64,000 bases of DNA from Candidatus Levyibacteriota bacterium (GCA_963716145.1 OY970292.1:746169-810168), one strand, 5' to 3'; numbered from the stretch's first letter, positions 995 through 49,148 are shown. Numbers and translations are program-made. Notes: generated by a model not told the origin, from the sequence alone.

Positions 995-1465
995 TCAAGT
1001 TTTTTCATTGGCAGGAAGACTTTCAGTTACTGCCTCCGCTTTTTCAGGGTCGCGCATCATTTCATCCAAAATTCTTGGTGCTATTTGCCATGTGACACCG
1101 AATTTGTCTGTACACCATCCGCATTGTTCAGCTTCAGGAACTGCTGAAAGTTTTTCCCAGAAGAAATCAATTTCTTCTTGTGTTTCGCACTCCACAATAT
1201 ATGAAGTTGCGCCGTTAAGTTTGAATTGATCAACAGGACCACCATTAAGAGCCATGAAGCTTATTCCATCAAGCTCGTATTCAGCTGTCATAACAGATCC
1301 TTCAGGTCTTCCGGAAACTTCTTCACTTGCTTTAGGAGTTTTTGTGATGTCTCCAATTTTTGCCTGATGATCACCAGGGGCTGAATTGAAAGTATCTATG
1401 TAGTAGTTTGCTGCCTCTTCTCCGTCATTGTTGGCAAACCAGATGCATGTAATTAGTTTACTCAT
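995..1465 (-). CDS. VOC/glyoxalase-superfamily protein, PhnB/YjdN-like ('3-demethylubiquinone-9 3-methyltransferase' domain family)
   Basis: motifs 'CIWF..EEAANYY', 'ALNGGP', 'CETQEEIDFFWEKL', 'CGWCTDKFGVTWQI' match this family. Confidence 0.7.
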   Translation of the reverse strand: MSKLITCIWFANNDGEEAANYYIDTFNSAPGDHQAKIGDITKTPKASEEVSGRPEGSVMTAEYELDGISFMALNGGPVDQFKLNGATSYIVECETQEEIDFFWEKLSAVPEAEQCGWCTDKFGVTWQIAPRILDEMMRDPEKAEAVTESLPANEKT

Positions 1466-1466
1466 T

Positions 1467-1895
1467 TTATTTATCAGGAGAAAATTCTATTATCCACTCA
1501 ATACCGTATTTATCTCGAAACATACCCGCATATGAGCCCCACGGACTATCTCCCATAGGTCCTTCTACTTCTCCGCCAGCCGAAAGGCCAGTAAATAATC
1601 TGTCCGCCTCTTCTTTACTTTCCGTATTTACCAAAATCTTGCTTCTGTTTTCGTTCTCATTTACTCGTCCCAGAACTTCCGGAACATCATTGGCTATCAA
1701 CATAGTACCTGTACCGATAGGTAAAGCAATATGCATTATTTTATTTTCTTCTTTTTCTGGCACAGGGAATTCAGCGCTCGCAATGTCTTTGAAACGTACT
1801 ACTTTCGCAAACTCTCCGCCGAATACTGATTTATAAAACGTAAATGCTTCTTCTGCATTACCGTTGAAGTTAATCCAAGGATTTATTGTTGCCAT
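1467..1895 (-). CDS. VOC/glyoxalase-superfamily protein, PhnB-like, tandem paralog of the previous gene
   Basis: 'NGNAEEAFTFYKSVFG', 'MHIAL..G..LIAND', 'FRDKYGIEWII' pattern; adjacent, same strand. Confidence 0.65.
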   Translation of the reverse strand: MATINPWINFNGNAEEAFTFYKSVFGGEFAKVVRFKDIASAEFPVPEKEENKIMHIALPIGTGTMLIANDVPEVLGRVNENENRSKILVNTESKEEADRLFTGLSAGGEVEGPMGDSPWGSYAGMFRDKYGIEWIIEFSPDK

Positions 1896-2071
1896 ACAGC
1901 AATAATAGCAAATTAAAGTAATTTGTAAAGAGCTTTTATTTGGCTCCGCCTAATGGACGAAGTCAGAACCTACTATGTTAATATGTAGTTATTTGAATTA
2001 AGCTTGCAATGAATTCTTGCTTATATTGATAAGTGAGTTTAAATAATAGTATAGTATAGTATAGTATATAT

Positions 2072-2461
2072 ATGGCTAATGATCCCAAAAAAAATGAGTC
2101 GTTTTTCAAACATCTTTCCAAGCATCCAATAGATACATTTTTTGAGATATTTGTTTTTTTAGCCTTTACTCCCCTTTATACAAAAGTTACTCCCTGGATT
2201 TCAATTCCCTTAGCATTTATACAAGATATTGTTATCTTGGTCATTATGCTATTACTATTTAATGCAGATTCGGTGCACACTGGGGTTCGTATAAGCTTAT
2301 CAGCAGGTGGAATTTTGGGAGCAATACTAGCAATCGGTATTATTTCTCAATTAATAGAATTTGTTTATTCTAATCTAACTATTTGTATAGTAGGCTTATT
2401 GGTATTTTATATCTATGTTTTTGCAACAAACAAAAGACCTCGATTTGAATGGATTGATTAA
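2072..2461 (+). CDS. hypothetical integral membrane protein (AT-rich island cargo)
   Basis: ORF track; about 33% GC; hydrophobic helices; preceded by (tatag)x4 tandem repeat at 2049-2070. Confidence 0.4.
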   Translation: MANDPKKNESFFKHLSKHPIDTFFEIFVFLAFTPLYTKVTPWISIPLAFIQDIVILVIMLLLFNADSVHTGVRISLSAGGILGAILAIGIISQLIEFVYSNLTICIVGLLVFYIYVFATNKRPRFEWID

Positions 2462-2552
2462 GCATAGTATGTTCCGCCTGATAGACGACTTTTAATCTAT
2501 GTAAAATATTAAATTTATTTTTCAAATAGGTTTAATGTATTTAACATAACTA

Positions 2553-3281
2553 CTATTTATGAATTTCAAAACCATTAACAGTAAGAATTTTATATTTTCT
2601 ATCAAGTGGAACCCGTTTAGAGATTGTTTTGTTTAGTATCTTGCCAACTGTAACATTCTGGAGTTCTCTACGAAAATCATCTAAAAAAGCACTTATTTCG
2701 GTTGTATTTAGCCAATAAGTGTTAATTAATTTAATTAATTCTTTATCGTTTAATTTCATTGTTTTTCCAAAAAACTCTGGAAAGATTTGCTCAGTTAAAT
2801 TCATATGCTTATCATTTACCCTTGTTCTAAATTCATTTAGGAAGATTCCACGCATTTTTTTTAAAGAATCAAATATAATTTCATGATTTTCGTATGACTG
2901 CACAAAATTTACATATGCGGTTTGTAGATCTGAATACCTGTCCGAAACCTCATTCCATTTATCTAATCTGTGCTTTGTTTGATTATTCCCGTTTACCAAT
3001 GGATTGTTTTGGCTAATTATAAAATAAATCAACCATTGAATAGTTGTACTATAGTTTGAAAACGCTGTTGAAAATTCAAAAAGTTTATTTTGAAAATCAC
3101 TCCATCCTTCATAGATAATCTTGTGTTCAAATTGCTTAGACATTTGCCTAAAAGCTGTTTTAACGGCAATAAATGCGGCAATTAAAGTTACAGATGCACC
3201 AATTAAAACTCCTAGGAGTTGAGCTTCATTAGCATGGAGTGATTTAGTCCACTCGTGTAAACCTAGTATAGCTTCATACAT
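2553..3281 (-). CDS. hypothetical protein with N-terminal TM anchor (AT-rich island cargo)
   Basis: ORF track; about 30% GC; no recognisable motifs. Confidence 0.4.
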   Translation of the reverse strand: MYEAILGLHEWTKSLHANEAQLLGVLIGASVTLIAAFIAVKTAFRQMSKQFEHKIIYEGWSDFQNKLFEFSTAFSNYSTTIQWLIYFIISQNNPLVNGNNQTKHRLDKWNEVSDRYSDLQTAYVNFVQSYENHEIIFDSLKKMRGIFLNEFRTRVNDKHMNLTEQIFPEFFGKTMKLNDKELIKLINTYWLNTTEISAFLDDFRRELQNVTVGKILNKTISKRVPLDRKYKILTVNGFEIHK

Positions 3282-3432
3282 TTGAATGGATTATATCAAA
3301 AGATAAGCCATATTGCTCCCCAAGCCGTTGATTAATATAACTATAGATTTTGATAGCATAACTAACACAATCCAAGACGTACTATATATTGGAGAATTAA
3401 GAAAGAGATGGAAGGAGATTAAGCTTCTTATC

Positions 3433-4239
3433 TCAAGGGGTTAACTGTTTCAATTCATTTTCAATATACTTGATTTGTGCCATAAACGATTCTACATACC
3501 ATAAGGCTTCTCCCTCTTTTGGTTCAGGACTGTTTCCTGCATGGGCAACACCCCAAACATCTCCTCTATAAGCAACAAGATTTTCAATTAGCTTTACTTG
3601 TATTGGGTGTAAATTAATTTTTTTAGACAGCATTTTAAATGCAGATTCAAAAGTATTCTGAGTTGTAGTTTTTTTACAATAATCCTCAAAAACAATGCAC
3701 ATATCCTTTACCACATCCTTAGGTTTTTTAGATCTTGTAATCAAGCCATCCACTAGATCTCTAAAAACTTGCTGCGTCTTACTTGCAAAAGCTAATGTTT
3801 TATCTGTATCTGTTATGGTTTTTGCAGTTTCATCTTCTATTTTTAGATCAACATGTCCATCTGAGCTGAATTCATATACAGATCCTGAGTTGTTAAAAGC
3901 AAGACATATATCTCTAAAGAGTCTTAGTCTCTTAGTGCTATCCAAATCTCGTTTTGCTCTATCATAGTAAATTTCTATAAAATCGAAGATTTGATCATAA
4001 GTTGTTTTAGTTTCATCACGAAAATCCTCGATTCCTATTATATTGCCAAAATGCATTTGTAGATCTTTACTGAATGCTACATTATGTATCCAGTTAGTGT
4101 TGCCTATGCTGAAATTATATTCGTTTCCACTATAAGGATGTCCATAAAGTTGTAGTATTCTATTTCTCAGGCTTTTTGATGCATCACCGTATCCTGAGTA
4201 TTCTTTTTTTAGGCTATTTCGTTTTGAAAAAGTTTGCAT
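3433..4239 (-). CDS. hypothetical protein (AT-rich island cargo), 268 aa
   Basis: ORF track; about 32% GC; sits immediately next to the tRNA-derived repeat block. Confidence 0.4.
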   Translation of the reverse strand: MQTFSKRNSLKKEYSGYGDASKSLRNRILQLYGHPYSGNEYNFSIGNTNWIHNVAFSKDLQMHFGNIIGIEDFRDETKTTYDQIFDFIEIYYDRAKRDLDSTKRLRLFRDICLAFNNSGSVYEFSSDGHVDLKIEDETAKTITDTDKTLAFASKTQQVFRDLVDGLITRSKKPKDVVKDMCIVFEDYCKKTTTQNTFESAFKMLSKKINLHPIQVKLIENLVAYRGDVWGVAHAGNSPEPKEGEALWYVESFMAQIKYIENELKQLTP

Positions 4240-4280
4240 GTATAATTTAAATTCGAAGTAAATCCGAAGAAATCCATAGG

Positions 4281-4461
4281 TGCTCCGCGACTAGGATTTT
4301 CCTTCGGCTTCGCTCAGGATAAACTGTTTAATTTTGGGAAGTTTCGCTCCGCGACTAGGATTTCCGCCAAAGGGCGGATAAACTCCCCTCAGGACCCTGT
4401 CAGCCTACTGGCTGATTGAAGTTAACAGCTTCCTGTCCGCCAGCTGGCGGACTATCGCGAA
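4281..4461 (-). repeat. block of degenerate tRNA-Asn-derived repeats: two tandem copies of the tRNA 3' end (T-stem plus acceptor, 'gctccgcgactaggattt'), each preceded by a different hairpin, plus a 5'-half pseudo-copy (acceptor-TAG-16-nt palindrome-anticodon arm 'ttgaagttaacagcttcctg')
   Basis: direct comparison with the intact tRNA at 4478-4552; the palindrome 'tccgccagctggcgga' replaces the D-arm. Confidence 0.7.
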
Positions 4462-4477
4462 TAATATTCTAAAGATT

Positions 4478-4552
4478 TGGCTCCGCGACTAGGATTCGAA
4501 CCTAGGACCTTGAAGTTAACAGCTTCCTGCTCTACCGCTGAGCTATCGCGGA
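4478..4552 (-). tRNA. tRNA-Asn (anticodon GTT), CCA encoded
   Basis: hand-folded cloverleaf: acceptor TCCGCGA/TCGCGGA, D-arm GCTC-AGCGGTA-GAGC, anticodon arm GGAAG-CTGTTAA-CTTCA, T-arm CTAGG-TTCGAAT-CCTAG, discriminator G then CCA. Confidence 0.85.
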
Positions 4553-19602: not shown

Positions 19603-19690
19603 GGAGGGATGTCTGAGTGGTTTAAGGTAACTCCTTGCTAAGGAGTCGTGGGGGTAAACCCTACCGCAGGTTCGAATCCTGTTCCCTCCG
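19603..19690 (+). tRNA. tRNA-Ser (anticodon GCT), class II with long variable arm
   Basis: acceptor GGAGGGA/TCCCTCC, anticodon arm ACTCC-TTGCTAA-GGAGT, T-loop TTCGAAT, discriminator G. Confidence 0.85.
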
Positions 19691-19746
19691 CTTCAAATTA
19701 CAATTCATATATATAAATTGCTATTAGTTTTTGCTAACATTAGATT

Positions 19747-20293: not shown

Positions 20294-20378
20294 GGAGGAG
20301 TCGCATAGTGGTCTAGTGCAGCGGTTTACTAAACCGCCATACCGCAAGGTATCGGGAGTCCGAATCTCCCCTCCTCCG
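20294..20378 (+). tRNA. class II tRNA, tRNA-Ser(GCU) paralog with anticodon loop TTACTAA (apparent anticodon ACU, A34) and T-loop TCCGAAT (C55); possibly a pseudo- or atypical tRNA
   Basis: hand fold: acceptor GGAGGAG/CTCCTCC, D-arm GCAT-AGTGGTCTA-GTGC, anticodon stem GCGGT/ACCGC, variable-arm hairpin ATACC-GCAA-GGTAT, T-stem GGGAG/CTCCC; the anticodon loop differs from the upstream tRNA-Ser by a single G-to-A change at position 34. Confidence 0.6.
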
Positions 20379-20418
20379 CTCTTATATTAATAATCCTCTT
20401 TCTGCTACACTAATTAAA

Positions 20419-43814: not shown

Positions 43815-45347
43815 ATGCTAGCGAAAGTTATGTCTGCTGCAGTTGTTGGCTTGGATGCTGTGCCTATTGAGGTTGAGATCGATATCGCCGCACAAGGTCT
43901 GCCAAATTTTTTTATTGTCGGATTACCAGATAAAGCAGTAGATGAGGCCAAAGAACGGGTCAGATCTGCGATTAAGAACACTGGGGCAGACTTTCCTGCC
44001 AAAAGGATAACTGTGAATCTCGCACCCGCAGATCTTCCCAAAGAAGGCGCTTCATACGATCTGCCTATTGCCTTAGGAATACTCATCGCATCAGGCCAGA
44101 TTGATGCAGATATTTCAAACTTTCTATTCTCAGGAGAACTATCACTGGACGGCAGGGTCAGATCAATCAATGGCGCGCTTCCTCTGGCCATAACCGCAAA
44201 GGAGAAGAAAATAAGCAGTATCTTTCTGCCGGTTGATAATGCAGCTGAGGCTGGAATAGTTCAGGGACTTGATGTTTATCCGGTGGCGACACTTAAACAG
44301 CTTTTCTTACATCTTACGGGAGGCACGCCGATTGTAAAGCAAAAACCTGTGAAGTTCTCCACAAAAACCTCCGCGGAGGTTTTTGATTACGATATGAAGG
44401 AAATAAAAGGCCAGCAACAGACCAAAAGGGCACTCGAAATAGCAGCAGCTGGTGCGCATAATATTCTTCTCAAAGGCCCGCCCGGAGCCGGAAAGACATT
44501 GCTCGCGCGCACGTTCCCATCTATTCTTCCGAGCCTGACGTTTGAGGAAATGATCGAGGTAACCAAAATTTACAGTATCGCTGGGCTTTTGGGAAAAGAG
44601 CCGATGATAAATAAACGCCCCTTCCGATCGCCTCATCATTCAACATCTCTGATCGGGCTTATCGGAGGGGGTGCTAATCCCAAACCAGGGGAAGTCACTC
44701 TCGCCCACCGCGGAGTGCTTTTTCTTGATGAATTTCCTGAATTCCCTAGATTTGTTCTTGAATCTCTCAGACAGCCGATTGAGGATAACATCGTTTCCAT
44801 CTCCCGCGCCAAGGGCAAAACCACTTTTCCAGCCCAATGCATGCTGGTGGCCGCCCAAAACCCGTGCATGTGTGGATATCTTGGGGATAAGTACCATGAA
44901 TGCACCTGCGCTCCATCCCAAATCCTCAAATATCAGAAGAAGGTTTCCGGCCCGCTTCTGGACAGAATAGATATCCATATCGATGTTCCGGCTGTAAAAG
45001 TCCACAAGCTAACTGAGGAAGATTTGGGCGTTGAAGACTCGGCCAAAATCCGCAAAAGAGTGCAAAAAGCCCGTGATCTCCAGCTAAAACGCTATAAGGG
45101 AAGTAAAATTGGCTCAAATGCCGAGCTGAATAATAAAAGTATCAAAGTCTATTGCATATTGTCTGAAGAATGTCTCCAGCTCTTGCGCCTAGCAGTAAGT
45201 AAGATGCATTTGTCAGGAAGATCGTACTACAGAACGATCAAACTCGCCCGTACAATAGCTGATCTGGAAAATGTGGATACCATAGCCCCAAATCACATCG
45301 CGGAGGCTCTCCAATACCGCCCAAAAGTTGAAAACACCTTAACATAA
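43815..45347 (+). CDS. comM: YifB/ComM-family Mg-chelatase-like AAA+ ATPase
   Basis: N-terminal 'MLAKVMSAAVVGLDAVPIEVEIDI..GLP.F.IVGLPD', Walker A 'GPPGAGKT', C-terminal chelatase domain. Confidence 0.85.
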   Translation: MLAKVMSAAVVGLDAVPIEVEIDIAAQGLPNFFIVGLPDKAVDEAKERVRSAIKNTGADFPAKRITVNLAPADLPKEGASYDLPIALGILIASGQIDADISNFLFSGELSLDGRVRSINGALPLAITAKEKKISSIFLPVDNAAEAGIVQGLDVYPVATLKQLFLHLTGGTPIVKQKPVKFSTKTSAEVFDYDMKEIKGQQQTKRALEIAAAGAHNILLKGPPGAGKTLLARTFPSILPSLTFEEMIEVTKIYSIAGLLGKEPMINKRPFRSPHHSTSLIGLIGGGANPKPGEVTLAHRGVLFLDEFPEFPRFVLESLRQPIEDNIVSISRAKGKTTFPAQCMLVAAQNPCMCGYLGDKYHECTCAPSQILKYQKKVSGPLLDRIDIHIDVPAVKVHKLTEEDLGVEDSAKIRKRVQKARDLQLKRYKGSKIGSNAELNNKSIKVYCILSEECLQLLRLAVSKMHLSGRSYYRTIKLARTIADLENVDTIAPNHIAEALQYRPKVENTLT

Positions 45348-45408
45348 GCTACTTATTTTTTACCTCCTACTTTCCTCTTAACTATTTTTTACTTCTTTAT
45401 CTTAAAAC

Positions 45409-45437
45409 TTGACAATTTTATGCATATGTGTTAGAAT
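45409..45437 (+). promoter_or_regulatory. near-consensus sigma70 promoter: TTGACA - 17 nt - TAGAAT
   Basis: -35 at 45409-45414, 17-nt spacer, -10 at 45432-45437; about 34 nt upstream of the ATG at 45471. Confidence 0.6.
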
Positions 45438-45470
45438 TAGTTATTAATTGTTAAATTGAGTAATAATTTT

Positions 45471-47213
45471 ATGAACCAAACTACCTTACTTTCTACGGAT
45501 GCAGCATGCAAACTTCTTGGAGTTACTAGACAAACGCTTTATAAATTGCTTGAAAAGGGAGAGATTCCTGGAAAAAAAGTTGGGGGTAGCTATAAATTTG
45601 TACAGCAGCAGCTTCTTGACTACATGAATAACAACTCAAAGCAAAATGAATATAAAGAATGGGAACTAAAGGGAGATTTTGCCACAGAAGGAATTAAAAA
45701 AATGGCAAAAAGAACTTTTCAAGAACTTGCCTCAAACTTAGAAGAATTAATAGCAAACGCTTACGATGCTGATGCTACTGAAGTACAAGTAACCATCGAC
45801 CAAGATAAGAAAACATTAAGTATCACAGATGATGGCAGCGGAATGGATGAAAAATCACTTTCCTCTTATGTAATTTATGGAGAAAGTCAGAAAGATACTA
45901 ACTACAGATCTCCCAAGTTTAAGCGAGCACCCATAGGGGAATATGGAATGGGCGGCAAGCTGGCCATCACAAATATCTGCAATCTTTGTAAAATCATAAC
46001 CAGAAAGCAGGGCAAAGAACACATATTTAGCATGAATAGAGCAGATCTCGATAAGGCAAAATTTGTTAGCGATATTACAAGCAAAGTACTAACAAAAAAT
46101 TGCTCCCCCACTCTTAACGGTACATCAATACATATGGAAAAATTATTTTCTAAAACTATAGACAGTGAGAGATTATTAGAAAGATTTTCTACTAAAATGC
46201 CAAAGAGTCAGAATTTTAAAATAACTGTAATAATCATAAAAGACAATGAGAGGAAAGAAATTGAAGTAAAAGAACCAGAATTTGAATATGAAGAAAAATT
46301 TGATTTTAGTGAAAAATTGAACTTAATAGGAGATGCCAGAATGACCATTTATTTCACAAAAGAACCCATTTCCCCTACCAAACAAGGGGTGTGGACTAGG
46401 GTAAACGGAAGAATTGTTAACGAAAAAGCAGAATGGTTTGACTTATTTAGAGCGACATCTGGAACTAGATATCGATATAGGCTGTTTGGTTATGGTGAAG
46501 CTAATGGTTTAAAAGATTTTGTTACTTTTTCCAAAAACGATTTTATTGATTGCCCGGAATATAGAGAATATTGGAATTTTGGTCACAAAAATATTTTAAA
46601 AGTTCAAAACAGCTTACTTAAAAGGGATGACGATGCAAAAAAAGTCCGAGACAGAACTATTGTAAAATCAGTAGAAGATGAAATCAATAAGATAGTCTCA
46701 AGGCTTGATACTCCTTCTATTTTGGGCGGCCTAGAATCAAAAATTAAGAAAGAGTTTACAAAGGAAATAGAAAATGCTCCCGAAACAGCTTACCCAAATT
46801 TTGAAGCGGTTGAAAAAGAAGCGGAGAAAATAGCAAATGATGTAAAAAGAGGGAAAGACAGAAGAGAACGCAGAAATCAAAGTCTTACCTCTAGTGAAAA
46901 AGTAAATTTTTCAGGTAAAAACTATTCTATAATTACCGTCAATTTATCAGAAAAGGGTGATCTAGTAAAGTTTGTGAAGGAAAAAAATTTGATAGAAATT
47001 AACGAAAGACATCCACTTTACAACAAATCTTCAAGCGATAATAACCTAGAAAGTTTTATTATGAATATTGCATTTACTGAAATTGCTCTGGATTACAGTG
47101 ATGGAAACTTTTTGAGTTTTGATAGTGTATTTAATGCCTTAGCAAGAATTGCTTCTGAGAAGGTTACAGTAAGTCAAATTACAGAACAAACCATTCGAGA
47201 TACTACCAATTAA
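45471..47213 (+). CDS. excisionase-type HTH (HTH_17-like) fused to a GHKL/MORC-like ATPase (HATPase_c_3-like), with a long C-terminal region of unknown function (alternative TTG start at 45456)
   Basis: N-terminal 'LLGVTRQTLYKLLEKGEIPGKKVGGSYKF'; GHKL N-box 'LEELIANAYDADATEV', G1 'DDGSGMD', G2 'GEYGMGGKLA'; about 32-35% GC. Confidence 0.6.
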   Translation: MNQTTLLSTDAACKLLGVTRQTLYKLLEKGEIPGKKVGGSYKFVQQQLLDYMNNNSKQNEYKEWELKGDFATEGIKKMAKRTFQELASNLEELIANAYDADATEVQVTIDQDKKTLSITDDGSGMDEKSLSSYVIYGESQKDTNYRSPKFKRAPIGEYGMGGKLAITNICNLCKIITRKQGKEHIFSMNRADLDKAKFVSDITSKVLTKNCSPTLNGTSIHMEKLFSKTIDSERLLERFSTKMPKSQNFKITVIIIKDNERKEIEVKEPEFEYEEKFDFSEKLNLIGDARMTIYFTKEPISPTKQGVWTRVNGRIVNEKAEWFDLFRATSGTRYRYRLFGYGEANGLKDFVTFSKNDFIDCPEYREYWNFGHKNILKVQNSLLKRDDDAKKVRDRTIVKSVEDEINKIVSRLDTPSILGGLESKIKKEFTKEIENAPETAYPNFEAVEKEAEKIANDVKRGKDRRERRNQSLTSSEKVNFSGKNYSIITVNLSEKGDLVKFVKEKNLIEINERHPLYNKSSSDNNLESFIMNIAFTEIALDYSDGNFLSFDSVFNALARIASEKVTVSQITEQTIRDTTN

Positions 47214-48076
47214 TGATGCAATTAGAATTGCCACTTCAGCAGAAAAAAAGGAAAAAATATAAATCGAGACAATCGGTAAAATACACTCCAAGCAAAGATC
47301 AGACTAGTAAATTACTAATGATAGAAGAGCTCTATTATCAAAAAGGTACCTTGCAAAAGACTGCTGACCATTTAGGACTAACAAAACAAAGAGTAAGTCA
47401 GCTATTAAATAAGGGTAAAAAATACAAACTTTACACATATGAGTTGGCTAGAAAAAGAAATTTGAAAAATCTAGCGGAGAAAATTGGAAGAGAAAACTTA
47501 ATAAGAGAAATAAAAAATGAAATAATAATACCTAAGATATGTAAAAAATTGGGTATAGATATTGTAGACTTCCATAAATTAATTAAGCATTTTGAACTTG
47601 ACTATCAAGACTATAATTTAAGCGCAAGACAGAGAAGATATATAAGAATGTATATGAACATAGTTGATGAGCTAGGACATCATCCCTCTACAACAGAGAT
47701 GAACACTAGAACAAAATGGAGAGGTGTGTGGTCTGGTTTATCCAGACACTGGAACAGCATGGAAAAATTCAGAAGGGAGTTTGGAATTGAACAACCACCG
47801 AGATTTATTCATCCCAATACAATAGTGGGTTTTAGGGAACATAAAATTAAAGTTAAACAAAAAAAGGCAACAAATATAGATAAAATTAGAGAACTCCTCC
47901 AAAATTATAGTATCCCAGTAAACATAGAGATGATTGCTAGTAATTTCACTTGCGCTCGAGGTACAATAAATAACTATCTCACAACACTCATATCTACAGG
48001 AGAGATAATTAAAATCAGAGAAGGCAAACGTGTAAAATATACGCTTAAAAAAACGCACATTAACTCAAGTATATAA
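47213..48076 (+). CDS. DNA-binding protein with a sigma-70 region-4-like HTH plus a C-terminal winged-helix-like segment; overlaps the stop of the upstream gene
   Basis: 'TLQKTADHLGLTKQRVSQLLNKG' HTH; C-terminal 'GTINNYLTTLISTGEIIKIREGKRVKYTL'; stop-start overlap TAATG; AT-rich. Confidence 0.5.
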   Translation: MMQLELPLQQKKRKKYKSRQSVKYTPSKDQTSKLLMIEELYYQKGTLQKTADHLGLTKQRVSQLLNKGKKYKLYTYELARKRNLKNLAEKIGRENLIREIKNEIIIPKICKKLGIDIVDFHKLIKHFELDYQDYNLSARQRRYIRMYMNIVDELGHHPSTTEMNTRTKWRGVWSGLSRHWNSMEKFRREFGIEQPPRFIHPNTIVGFREHKIKVKQKKATNIDKIRELLQNYSIPVNIEMIASNFTCARGTINNYLTTLISTGEIIKIREGKRVKYTLKKTHINSSI

Positions 48077-48086
48077 CCCTAGATTC

Positions 48087-48105
48087 AGCTTTTAAAGAAA
48101 AAGCT
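48087..48105. terminator. hairpin (agctttt-aaaga-aaaagct) between the convergent 47213..48076 gene and ruvB
   Basis: 7-bp stem, AT-rich; weak T-tract afterwards. Confidence 0.35.
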
Positions 48106-48113
48106 ATAAGATT

Positions 48114-49148
48114 TTATATCAGCTTCTGCTGTTTGCCACCCTTTTCTTCAGGATGAGTTGCACCTATGTGTTCGTAGGCGGCTTTTGTGGCGATTCTGCC
48201 TCTTGGAGACCGCTTGATAAAACCTAACTGCAATAGATACGGCTCGACCACGTCTTCAAGCGTGCCTGAATCCTCAGATATTGTTGATGCAATTGTCTCA
48301 ACCCCCACCGGTCCACCGCTATGCTTCTCAATTATTGATCTTAAGAACTTTATATCCAGCGGATCTAGGCCTTTCTCGTCCACCTCAAGCATCTCAAGAG
48401 CTTTTTTTGAAGCATCAAGGTCAATATGCCCTTTTCCTTTAACCTGCGCGTAGTCCCTGACTCTTTTAAGAATCTTGAGGGCAATCCTGGGCGTGCCCCG
48501 TGCGCGAAGGGCAATTTCCTTAATACTTTGCGCGTCAATTGCAATCTTGAGCTTATTGGCGGCTTCCTGAATGATCTTTCCAAGCTCCGAAGGCGTATAA
48601 AAGTTAAGCCTGTGTGTTACCCCAAATCTGTCCCTCAGTGGCGCTGAGAGCAGTCCTGCACGGGTTGTGGCACCAATGATAGTAAACTGCGGCAAATCAA
48701 GCCTTACGGTTCTTGCTGAAGGACCTTTGCCAAGAACTATATCAAGAGCATAGTCCTCCATCGCGGGATACAAGGTCTCCTCAACTGTTGTATTTAGCCT
48801 GTGGATTTCGTCAATAAATAATATGTCGCCCTTTTCCAGATTTGTCAGAATTGAAGCCAGATCACCTGATCGCTCAAGAGCAGGACCTGATGTGACACGA
48901 ATATTGGCCTTCATTTTACGGGCTATAATGTGAGAAAGAGTTGTCTTACCAAGTCCCGGAGGACCATATAGAAGAATGTGCTCAATTGCTTCTTTTCGCT
49001 TTCCGGCAGCCTCAATCGCGATTTGAAGCGAAGCCTTAATATTCTCCTGCCCATGAAAATCCTCCCAAGACGAAGCTCGCAGAGAGACAAAAAGTTTCTC
49101 TTCCTCTGGAGTAATTTCTTCTTTTGTTTGTAACTTTACTTTACTCAT
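48114..49148 (-). CDS. ruvB: Holliday junction ATP-dependent DNA helicase RuvB
   Basis: '[18 protein letters not shown]', '[10 protein letters not shown]', sensor '[17 protein letters not shown]'. Confidence 0.9.

Follow-up and report, generated by a model that had tools for sequence, protein, structure and literature searches.

ParaMORC ATPases were placed in restriction-modification (R-M) systems by Iyer, Abhiman and Aravind in 2008 (PMC2292703). An N-terminal GHKL ATPase is also found in the mobile conflict systems Shedu type I-D/paraMORC3 (VcSduA), MZA (MzaB) and Tiamat (TmtA), and in VcSduA the ATPase activity is needed for defence (PMC12137116). MORC2 and MORC-1 provide precedent for clamping and compaction of DNA, and eukaryotic MORCs silence transposons through compaction (PMC12216690, PMC8277788).

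Here we describe a two-gene operon in a 64-kb stretch of the genome of a Candidatus Levyibacteriota bacterium (the window, meaning all 64,000 nucleotides analysed). Gene 1 of this operon resembles the paraMORC/MORC ATPases of R-M systems in its N-terminal HATPase_c_3 domain, intact ATP motifs, S5/transducer domain and family-specific C-terminal extension, and both families are sporadic and laterally mobile. In contrast to them, gene 1 adds an N-terminal HTH_17 domain and a coiled coil followed by a basic linker, and the pair comes without a linked methylase, helicase or nuclease, has a conserved phased GTTAA operator, and includes an obligate multi-HTH partner, which is not described in the passages of that paper covered here. 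With VcSduA, MzaB and TmtA, gene 1 shares the N-terminal GHKL ATPase and, if the role proposed below is right, membership of a mobile conflict system; MzaB and TmtA give weak HMM matches to gene 1, in the GHKL domain only.

A low-GC operon between comM and ruvB

The operon (positions 45409-48076; all features below lie on the + strand) is located between intact comM and ruvB genes, the flanks that had been named at first, which are identified by Pfam matches to Mg_chelatase/ChlI (E 7e-93) and RuvB_N (E 2e-76). The segment 45348-48113 has a GC content of 32.4%, compared with 39.4% for the 64-kb window (sd 2.2% among same-size windows); gene 1 and gene 2 have 33.6% and 31.5%, and comM and ruvB 46.9% and 45.8%. 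The first-pass annotation had called this the most AT-rich segment of the window. The low GC content stands, but it is not unique, since a stretch at ~1400-4400 is equally AT-rich (32.3% GC).

The same annotation had drawn an analogy with AbaR-type insertion into comM. However, comM is intact (510 aa, its three Pfam domains all present), and the module adjoins the gene without interrupting it, so the analogy is inapplicable. On the other side, ruvB is convergent with the operon and belongs to a normal ruvC...ruvA-ruvB arrangement, with ruvA and ruvC beyond ruvB. No recombinase, att-like repeats or element ends were found within the 64-kb window.

A promoter overlapped by phased direct repeats

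Gene 1 is preceded by a sigma70-type promoter (45409-45437), found by reading the sequence and by a scan, which consists of TTGACA, a 17-nt spacer and TAGAAT with an extended -10 TG. It matches the consensus at 11 of 12 positions, in keeping with its early description as near-perfect, and is the sole site in the region above 9/12. Similar TTGACA promoters are found upstream of gene 1 at other loci (L003, L004, L085, L088 and L089).

The promoter is overlapped by a putative operator (45430-45459), overlooked at first, which is composed of three direct repeats, GTTAGAATTA, GTTATTAATT and GTTAAATTGA, in exact 10-bp phasing. The GTTA(A) repeats start at 45430, 45440 and 45450, the first overlapping the -10 hexamer, and neither strand of the 64-kb window has another such GTTA triplet (0.18 in shuffles). 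Upstream of gene 1, 16 of 23 distinct loci carry such a phased array, with 2-5 repeats over or downstream of the -10. These 23 loci contain 26 phased pairs; shuffled sequences give 0.38 ± 0.63, and windows drawn at random from the loci themselves 0.43 ± 0.79. The histogram of repeat spacing across loci peaks at 10.

The array was not found upstream of gene2-like genes whose neighbouring ATPase is without HTH_17, and the presence of HTH_17 in the ATPase correlates with the GTTAA array. From this correlation we infer that HTH_17 may be the domain that binds the array. BldC, another HTH_17 protein, binds head-to-tail on direct repeats (PMC5859096), where the repeat unit is 9 bp (AATTxxxxC), whereas the unit of the binding predicted here is 10 bp with a GTTAA core. 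Furthermore, the HTH_17 proteins BldC, Xis and RdfS are ~60-70 aa long, whereas HTH_17 of gene 1 is fused to a 520-aa ATPase. The initial suggestion of an Xis-like remnant is unlikely as stated, because the domain is conserved as the N-terminus of the ATPase and is tied to the operator array. We likewise rejected an Xis or recombination directionality factor, given that HTH_17 is the N-terminus of a 580-aa ATPase and that no recombinase lies near the module in the window.

Gene 1 encodes an HTH_17-GHKL-S5 protein

Gene 1 (45471-47213) encodes a MORC/paraMORC-like ATPase with the order HTH_17-GHKL-S5-coiled coil-CTD. The protein is 580 aa long if started at the ATG at 45471, or 585 aa from the TTG at 45456, and not 581 aa as first reported. 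The proposed fusion of HTH_17 to a GHKL ATPase, expected to be of the HATPase_c_3 type, was borne out: the excisionase/MerR/BldC-type winged HTH (45486-45635) scores 43.6 bits (cut-off 27), and the ATP-binding domain (45732-46124; PF13589, E 6e-21) scores 75.3 bits (cut-off 25), which places it in the GHKL superfamily. The motifs quoted for it are present and invariant in 19 homologues (N-box E92/N96/D99, G1 D120-G122-G124 and G2 G156-G162/K163), and align with ELVDNARDADAT / DDGAGMD of MORC2. The GHKL domain is directly followed by an S5/transducer-like beta domain with an invariant SKNDF motif after it (46215-46502), where K355, a candidate sensor lysine, is invariant among the 19 aligned homologues. 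Judged by these motifs, the GHKL+S5 ATPase of gene 1 is catalytically intact, and its closest fold is MORC.

The ~350 aa beyond the GHKL domain had been described as having no recognisable domain. It is true that Pfam gives no match in gene 1 beyond GHKL, but the AF2 model divides this region into four parts: the S5/transducer-like beta domain comes first, then a long coiled coil, next a basic linker that is disordered, and at the C-terminus a small alpha/beta domain. The S5 domain, the coiled coil and the C-terminal domain had thereby gone unnoticed. The long helix/coiled coil and the linker (46554-46910), delimited by AF2 secondary structure, pLDDT and alignment, correspond to residues 362-434 and to the disordered, highly basic residues 435-480 (KRGKDRRERRNQS), respectively. 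The C-terminal domain (residues 486-579; 46926-47207) contains the invariant residues E509, N511, H514, Y517 and D541 (motif IEINExHPLY) and is probably a dimerisation or interaction domain; its HMM recovers only its own family among 1.84 billion representatives.

Like the eukaryotic chromatin-compacting ATPases MORC2/MORC3 (and SMCHD1), gene 1 has a coiled coil and additional DNA-binding regions after its ATPase module. However, identity to these proteins is only 16-21%, gene 1 is without CW or chromo-like reader domains, and, unlike the eukaryotic MORCs, it is bacterial, horizontally mobile and encoded in an operon with a dedicated DNA-binding partner. No nuclease, methylase, TIR, HEPN or other effector domain was found in gene 1 or gene 2, and no nuclease motif is conserved in the alignments of either family. 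Gene 1 could not be assigned to any of paraMORC1-5, because its C-terminal region holds no DUF4263/RE-fold, TIR, HxH or Ymh domain.

Gene 2 combines several DNA-binding modules

Gene 2 (47213-48076) encodes a 287-aa multi-HTH DNA-binding partner and is coupled to gene 1 by a TAATG overlap. In its AF2 model (pLDDT 84.6) the protein is all-helical with a C-terminal winged helix (47870-48058). A sigma70 region-4-like HTH at residues 37-68 (47321-47416; PF04545, 25.8 bits, cut-off 24.1) was matched in 10 of 10 members of the family. Length, overlap and both of these HTHs had been read correctly from the outset. Gene 2 was rejected as a sigma-70 factor, as no match to region 2 or 3 was seen in any of the 10 members.

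The centre of the protein holds a module similar to homing-endonuclease-associated repeats (LGHHPSTTEM...W...R.W.S..KFRREFGIE; 47660-47791), also absent from the earlier reading, with weak profile matches to PF18780 HNH_repeat (E 0.009) and LAGLIDADG_3 (E 0.004, a sub-threshold fragment). This module is the most conserved block of the gene 2 family, in which G155, H157, T160, T161, W169, W180, F186, R187 and G191 are invariant. A homing endonuclease was rejected too: the repeat is non-catalytic, there is no invariant acidic residue, and the fold is all-HTH. As a whole, gene 2 is built from DNA-binding modules only and evolves much faster than gene 1, its homologues being only 27-42% identical across phyla versus 45-73% for gene 1 (~107 clusters of full-length homologues), and its N-terminal extensions vary, including RNA_pol_A_CTD.

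Restriction relatives and a sibling operon

Among annotated sequence families, BbrUII/HgiDII comes closest to the GHKL and middle region of gene 1, and the best NCBIfam match is NF050001 restrict_BbrUII (E 1e-25), at 90.4 bits against a cut-off of 550 and over only model positions 21-198 of 659, the GHKL part. Distant relatives of gene 1, 25-35% identical over residues ~65-460, are GHKL-Ymh proteins related to the BbrUII/HgiDII restriction enzymes; they adjoin Dcm in 34 of 37 loci and Vsr in 21 of 37. The kinship with HgiDII/BbrUII-type enzymes had not been noted before. As with the paraMORCs of R-M operons, Dcm, Vsr, methylase and HKD/SNF2 genes adjoin sequence-detectable relatives of gene 1. 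Unlike BbrUII/HgiDII and GHKL-Ymh, gene 1 is without the Ymh/HEPN-like C-terminal domain (TIGR02391) and without Dcm/Vsr neighbours, and its gains over BbrUII/HgiDII are HTH_17, a C-terminal domain of another kind and the multi-HTH partner.

PADLOC-DB v2 gave no match to named anti-phage systems (Gabija, Septu, Lamassu, BREX, MZA, Tiamat, MADS and Shedu among them). The matches of gene 1 were partial and confined to GHKL or HTH domains, the best being two REase_II models (GHKL part), with TmtA over residues 76-149 and mad1 over the HTH, and gene 2 had no significant match. The first-pass view that the pair is no named defence system is thus upheld, and nothing on this gene pair was found in the literature.

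The two REase_II models, the NF050001 match and the Dcm and Vsr genes beside distant relatives could be explained if the pair were an orphan BbrUII/HgiDII type II restriction endonuclease, or a type IV-like enzyme, for which gene 2 would be the controller (C) protein. We consider this very improbable: the score is far below the cut-off and confined to GHKL, the Hypoth_Ymh domain of the R-M-linked relatives and a conserved nuclease motif are both missing, and no methyltransferase adjoins the pair in the window, where its neighbours are comM and ruvB.

A profile search with gene 2 found 12 'type B' operons, a sibling arrangement that had been missed, in which a gene2-like gene is followed by a different HATPase_c_3 ATPase and then by a 295-aa protein, in which no effector domain was found. 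The GHKL+S5 part that the type B ATPase has in common with gene 1 is recognisable at profile level only (hhalign E 3.6e-5). In two of the 12 (L128 and L136) the operon comes after a type IIG-like methylase and an HKD-SNF2 helicase, and the surroundings of type B and orphan loci also contain SLFN_AlbA_2 and DNA methylases.

Type I R-M, AbiE and PDC matches occur near some of the type A loci, to which the window belongs. No R-M components (methylase, SF-II helicase, nuclease) lie directly beside the pair in the window or at other type A loci, the methyltransferases at the latter being occasional separate R-M systems a few kb off. Of the type A neighbourhoods surveyed, only about one in four contains a recognised defence gene, and most flanks are housekeeping. 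The idea of a candidate defence system keeps its circumstantial context, but is weakened by this low proportion and by the missing effector domain.

A mobile accessory gene pair

In other genomes, where a search for the pair had been advised, gene 2 directly follows gene 1 in 29 of 29 related loci, which come from CPR bacteria, Omnitrophota, Planctomycetota, Margulisiibacteriota and other phyla; in L001, L003, L085 and L086 the two frames overlap or nearly abut, as in the window. Close homologues (51-71% identity) were found in only 8 of 185,579 species representatives, which belong to unrelated groups such as CPR, Omnitrophota and Planctomycetota, and the flanks differ at every surveyed locus. 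Together with the low GC content, this indicates that the pair is a real horizontally mobile two-gene operon, accessory and not core, as the first reading had supposed.

A housekeeping function in the lineage, be it repair by a MutL-like ATPase, signalling by a two-component kinase or work alongside the neighbouring ruvABC genes, might be suspected from ruvB next to the pair in the window and from a RuvB-like AAA+ gene next to it in L085 and L086. It is effectively refuted by the rarity of the pair, by its changing flanks, by a GC content ~7 points below the genome and ~14 points below both flanking genes, and by the ordinary, convergent arrangement of the window ruvB. Nor does gene 1 belong to a housekeeping ATPase family: MutL reaches 31.9 bits against a cut-off of 180 (TIGR00585/PRK00095), in the N-box region only and with no MutL_C match, and histidine-kinase matches are marginal and far below cut-off, with no DHp/His box.

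The pair is found directly downstream of a large serine recombinase in L003, L004 and L166, and L089 has it within an island of integrase and resolvase genes; the recombinases of L004 and L089 come with a separate small HTH_17 gene of their own. In L085 and L086, both 99-kb contigs of phage-like character, the pair lies in an early-gene-like region ahead of the RuvB-like AAA+ gene. These settings would be explained if the pair were a maintenance or regulation module of the mobile element that carries it, serving MORC-like silencing, superinfection exclusion or a partition-like function. Such a role would also fit two proteins that are purely DNA-binding and ATPase with no effector, phased direct repeats upstream of an NTPase-adaptor operon, and the transposon silencing by eukaryotic MORCs. 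However, many copies, the window included, are solitary between housekeeping genes with no element genes nearby, which is hard to reconcile with an element-serving function, and no close homologues were found in 72,556 plasmids (PLSDB), 50,697 phages or IMG/VR. We regard this explanation as possible but doubtful.

In its partition version, the repeats would be a centromere or operator, gene 1 the NTPase and gene 2 the adaptor. ParMRC and TubZRC share this order, with promoter-overlapping direct repeats, an NTPase gene, a gene for a DNA-binding adaptor and an expected autoregulation. In contrast to them, the NTPase here is a GHKL clamp and not an actin, tubulin or Walker-type filament former, the window locus is chromosomal with only 3 repeats, many of the copies are chromosomal and solitary, and no homologues were found on PLSDB plasmids. 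Moreover, integrated elements have no need for partition, and so few repeats at the -10 fit a simple operator.

The compact, translationally coupled operon with its strong promoter and operator array also recalls autoregulated type II toxin-antitoxin (TA) loci, the cassette is solitary in streamlined genomes, and AbiE and VapC/MazE-type genes are neighbours at some loci. One protein might thus be toxic (for example, gene 1 clamping the chromosome) and be restrained by the other or by autorepression, in an addiction cassette that would amount to selfish persistence after horizontal transfer. This is improbable, as both proteins greatly exceed the usual size of type II TA proteins, neither is like a known toxin, and of the two it is gene 1 that evolves slowly and under strong constraint. 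In an independent assembly of the same population gene 2 is frameshifted beside an intact gene 1, which, if the frameshift is real, argues against gene 2 as an essential antitoxin.

Discussion

We tentatively favour the reading that the pair is an autoregulated mobile offshoot of restriction-associated paraMORC/MORC GHKL ATPases, devoid of nuclease and methylase, for which we infer a role in conflict or defence. The pair belongs to no named system and is probably a conflict or defence module.

In such an offshoot, HTH_17 would, in the manner of BldC and Xis, bind head-to-tail along the GTTAA array and repress the operon, and gene 2 would serve as a variable DNA-recognition or sensor subunit. 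The gene 1 dimer may be held together at its C-terminal and coiled-coil end, while the GHKL heads would close on ATP and clamp or loop DNA, like those of MORC, MutL and Topo VI-B; by analogy, the ATP-driven dimerisation, DNA clamping and compaction of MORC2/MORC3 offer a plausible template. The result would be defence against, or exclusion of, foreign DNA, by entrapment, silencing or recruitment of an unlinked nuclease and not by a nuclease of its own.

A bolder proposal, which we think unlikely, is that the pair and its type B sibling form a nuclease-free bacterial MORC system, in which the multi-HTH adaptor would direct an ATP-driven clamp to foreign or mobile DNA and thereby entrap, compact or silence it. 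If true, this would be a prokaryotic counterpart, and possibly an antecedent, of the silencing of transposons by eukaryotic MORCs, and the nuclease-free clamp would represent a new, effector-less mode of defence or exclusion.

The comM-ruvB operon

The module lies between comM (43815-45347, plus strand; Mg_chelatase E 7e-93) and ruvB (48114-49148, minus strand; RuvB_N E 2e-76), beyond which window ORF and Pfam annotation places ruvA and ruvC, so the core-gene flanks named in the first-pass annotation stand. It consists of gene 1 (45471-47213, plus strand), whose product is identical in NCBI and ENA, and gene 2 (47213-48076, plus strand; 287 aa), whose ATG has one base in common with the gene 1 stop codon (TAATG). 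This translational overlap had been read correctly, as had the near-perfect sigma70 promoter (TTGACA-17-TAGAAT, 45409-45437, plus strand; 11 of 12 positions matched, extended -10 TG); the length of gene 1 had been put at 581 aa and is 580 aa counted from the ATG at 45471. The GC content of 45348-48113 is 32.4%, compared with 39.4% for the window (s.d. 2.2% in equal-size windows), 46.9% for comM and 45.8% for ruvB. The low GC of the segment was thus borne out, but not its standing as the single most AT-rich part of the window, since it ties with about 1400-4400. The stretch 2000-4400, second lowest in GC (0.29-0.33), holds two ORFs of unknown function (2553-3281 and 3433-4239, minus strand) directly beside a tRNA-Asn gene (4478-4552, minus strand), and resembles a further small accessory island sited at a tRNA. 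Elsewhere in the window, about 600 nt separate two tRNA-Ser genes (19603-19691 and 20294-20379), the second with the unusual anticodon ACT according to ARAGORN.

Around the module in the window we found no terminator and no recombinase, and no meaningful direct or inverted repeats border 45350-48110; element ends at the module were therefore dismissed. The earlier suggestion that comM had served as an AbaR/Tn6022-like insertion target does not hold either, because comM is intact and the module is downstream of it. Among the fetched loci, the comM-ruvB flanks recur only in L084, which comes from the same population through an independent Logan assembly. L084 lacks a single nucleotide (GG to G, following an A5 run, at about 6473 in L084 and about 47345 in the window) and is otherwise identical to the window. 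The deletion breaks gene 2 into 53-aa and 241-aa ORFs; it may be real, giving a gene-2-null variant, or an error of assembly.

Gene 1 is an intact GHKL+S5 ATPase

Pfam recognises HTH_17 (43.6 bits) and HATPase_c_3 (75.3 bits) in gene 1, and the ATP-binding motifs (E92, N96 and D99; D120-G122-G124; G156-G162) are invariant in an alignment of 19 homologues, which upholds the proposed fusion of an HTH_17 domain to a GHKL ATPase with N-box, G1 and G2. A second invariant block of the same alignment, QGIWTKVNGRIVNEK.EWF...SG.RYR.R.YG...A.GLK...TFSKNDF, includes K355. In the AlphaFold2 model (pLDDT 73.5), a winged HTH (residues 1-55) is followed by the GHKL domain (62-245), a beta-rich domain (249-344), a single very long helix (362-434), a disordered, very basic linker (435-480) and a small alpha/beta C-terminal domain (CTD; 486-579). 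Values in the comparison table for gene 1 were 21.1 for MORC3 (275 aligned residues), 19.9 for MORC2, 19.7 for SMCHD1, 17.4 for TRAP1, and 16.8 for both the MutL N-terminal domain and Topo VI-B. Gene 1 is an intact GHKL+S5 ATPase with additional DNA-binding parts.

We likened the operon to MORC/paraMORC; it has the defining features of GHKL and GHKL+S5 proteins. It belongs neither with MutL nor with histidine kinases, for which scores were below cut-offs or defining domains were missing; a housekeeping function is largely excluded and the least probable role of all. Membership tests also failed for excisionases, sigma factors and homing endonucleases, and for Shedu/paraMORC3, MZA and Tiamat. 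Every PADLOC system failed on cut-offs or missing defining domains, and the operon, as first supposed, matches no named defence system in that collection. The literature on bacterial MORC, paraMORC and HATPase_c_3 in defence returned nothing on the gene 1/gene 2 pair, and in the searchable literature we did not find the HTH_17-GHKL-S5-coiled coil-CTD architecture, the multi-HTH partner, the GTTAA operator or the sibling operon described below.

Gene 2 is an obligate, fast-evolving partner

Full-length homologues of gene 1 form about 107 clusters at 45-73% identity, and a close copy is found in only 8 of 185,579 species representatives (Amesbacteria, Roizmanbacteria, Peregrinibacteria, Omnitrophota, Planctomycetota, MAGs labelled Eubacteriales and Gammaproteobacteria, and one unclassified MAG); metagenomic copies extend to Margulisiibacteriota and others. 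When the pair was searched for in other genomes, a gene 2 homologue proved to lie directly downstream of gene 1 in 9 of 9 and later in 29 of 29 loci with room for one, making it a conserved partner. The two frames overlap or nearly abut in L001, L003, L085 and L086 (four of the compared loci), as they do in the window.

Sigma70_r4 is present in all ten gene 2 family members examined, four of which add an N-terminal RNA_pol_A_CTD. The top-conserved block of the alignment, LGHHPSTTEM...W...R.WGS.DKFR.EFGIE, weakly matches the Pfam 'homing endonuclease associated repeat'. Where the two genes were compared locus by locus, identity is 56-73% for gene 1 but only 27-42% for gene 2, whose length also varies, between 242 and 553 aa. 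Protein searches by word index, with gene 2 as query, gave only 3 and 7 matches; the family was recovered through a DNA-pattern scan of metagenomes (66 loci). Gene 2 is an obligate, fast-evolving multi-HTH partner of gene 1.

A phased GTTAA array as candidate operator

The 30 nt from 45430 read GTTAGAATTA GTTATTAATT GTTAAATTGA, three direct repeats exactly 10 bp apart, the first of which overlaps the -10 element; with both strands scanned, this triplet of repeats is unique in the window. An array of 2-5 such units (consensus WWNWGTTAAWWW) is situated between promoter and start codon in 16 of 23 distinct loci of the gene 1-gene 2 operon (type A), from different phyla. Across type A loci we observed 26 GTTA pairs spaced 9-11 bp, compared with 0.38 +/- 0.63 expected from shuffles (maximum 4 in 1000) and 0.43 +/- 0.79 from windows drawn at random in those loci. 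In the histogram of spacings, 22 counts fall at 10 bp exactly; the motif on the opposite strand gave 2 pairs. Judged from this pattern, the conserved array is a candidate operator belonging to a self-contained operon. It is absent 5' of gene2-like genes whose adjacent ATPase is without HTH_17, and gene 2 is therefore disfavoured as its binder. Upstream of the -35, two copies of TATTTTTTAC(C/T)TC (45354-45366 and 45383-45395, 29 nt apart) could serve as an UP-like element or a second binding element, or may have arisen by chance, the DNA being AT-rich.

Relatives of both genes in restriction-modification-like settings

The next-nearest relatives of gene 1 form a large, widespread family of GHKL proteins about 550 aa long (L014-L083; for example L015 9986-11638). 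They carry a Hypoth_Ymh domain (TIGR02391) at the C-terminus and match gene 1 at 25-35% identity across residues about 65-460. A C5 DNA methyltransferase adjoins the GHKL-Ymh gene in 34 of 37 loci, almost always preceding it, and Vsr is nearby in 21 of the 37, a context that fits the paraMORC theme in restriction-modification (R-M; Iyer et al. 2008, PMC2292703). With the BbrUII/HgiDII restriction-enzyme model these relatives score 248 bits and gene 1 scores 90 bits, against a cut-off of 550. Gene 1 is thus not a HgiDII/BbrUII enzyme, and the reading of the operon as an orphan restriction enzyme is highly improbable and largely excluded.

Among the 66 metagenome loci found with the gene 2 profile, about 25 are type A, 12 belong to a sibling operon with a different GHKL ATPase (type B), and a few gene2-like genes are without a GHKL neighbour. 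Type B consists, in order, of a gene2-like gene, a 553-563-aa HATPase_c_3 protein without HTH_17 and a conserved 295-aa basic helical protein in which no known domain was recognised (L128 8437-12333; L136 6092-9092, cut off by the contig end ahead of the third gene; also L131, L133, L135, L138, L139, L140, L142, L158, L159 and L165). Its ATPase has only profile-level kinship to gene 1, across GHKL+S5 (hhalign E 3.6e-5). PADLOC did not recognise the type B operon. Its 295-aa protein resembles neither gene 1 nor gene 2 at profile level, and a hidden nuclease there was rejected, as it has no Pfam or PADLOC match and no evident nuclease motif. A type IIG-like methylase and an HKD(PLD)-SNF2 helicase precede the type B genes in L128 and L136, and SLFN_AlbA_2 (four times) and recurring DNA methylases lie near type B or orphan loci. 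That the multi-HTH protein partners two unrelated GHKL+S5 lineages is strong evidence for functional coupling, and the wider context of this partnership is R-M-like.

The operon is horizontally mobile

The flanks of type A vary at every locus, being housekeeping genes in L087, L088, L167 and the window. In L003 (5064-7262), L166 (7187-9350) and L004 (5603-7796) a divergent module with a large serine recombinase is directly upstream; L003 and L166 have in common the recombinase, a ~60-aa ORF and a short DprA-like protein, the last replaced in L004 by a small HTH_17 protein. This set may be a minimal integrative element carrying the pair. A Trypsin_2 protease lies downstream in L003 and L004, and the L089 pair is set in an integrase/resolvase island. 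L085 and L086, each about 99 kb long, are phage-like contigs crowded with small uncharacterised ORFs; the gene immediately after the pair there is divergent and encodes a RuvB-like AAA+ protein (RuvB_N with a RuvB winged helix; L085 12665-13780; L086 12636-13766). In the window it is host ruvB that adjoins the pair, convergently oriented, and the resemblance may be coincidence.

Among 110 further flanking ORFs from 16 loci, defence or mobile-element genes comprised one type I R-M system, AbiEi/AbiEii, tyrosine integrases, a type II methylase and PDC candidates. All others were ordinary, apart from DUF2130, which turned up four times no more than 5 kb from the pair, with no fixed distance or orientation (L006 5613-6743, L007 6744-7838 and other type A loci). 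Close homologues were absent from GenBank phages, PLSDB plasmids and IMG/VR, which gave only distant GHKL matches. The operon is horizontally mobile. A regulatory, silencing or partition-like role serving mobile elements is possible, if rather unlikely; that it is an addiction cassette is distinctly unlikely.

Discussion

Proteins of the GHKL+S5 type, among them MutL, Topo VI-B, Hsp90 and MORC, are dimeric and close their N-terminal domains on ATP. By analogy with these families, gene 1 would have the parts for an ATP-closing DNA clamp, namely the coiled coil and CTD (a candidate for distal dimerisation), the basic linker and the HTH, and gene 2 would provide target recognition. Since no nuclease or methylase is present, the output would be either non-nucleolytic (entrapment or silencing) or reliant on unlinked factors; MORC-1 and MORC2 entrap and compact DNA (PMC12216690, PMC8277788). 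We tentatively favour a role in conflict or defence, because of the R-M kinship, the type B context, the carriage by recombinase elements and phage-like contigs, and the solitary persistence in small genomes.

Bacterial MORC/paraMORC ATPases have reportedly been predicted since 2008 to act in restriction-like systems. We know of almost none that has been studied, and to our knowledge the origin of eukaryotic MORC-type silencing is unresolved. The locus defines a two-gene MORC-like version that is compact, self-contained and strongly conserved, and is a testable candidate for what such bacterial ATPases do, with a function that we infer. Because it combines an intact ATPase, a dedicated putative DNA-targeting partner, no nuclease and a recognisable candidate operator, the operon is a minimal system in which to ask what effect a prokaryotic MORC-like clamp has on DNA. 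That gene2-like multi-HTH proteins go with two unrelated families of GHKL ATPase suggests a broader partnership, as yet undescribed. Should the operon confer protection from phages or plasmids, it would count as a new, non-cutting defence system, notable for occurring in CPR bacteria and other uncultured phyla with small genomes; if it does not, it would be a clean case of an autoregulated selfish cassette travelling with serine-recombinase elements.
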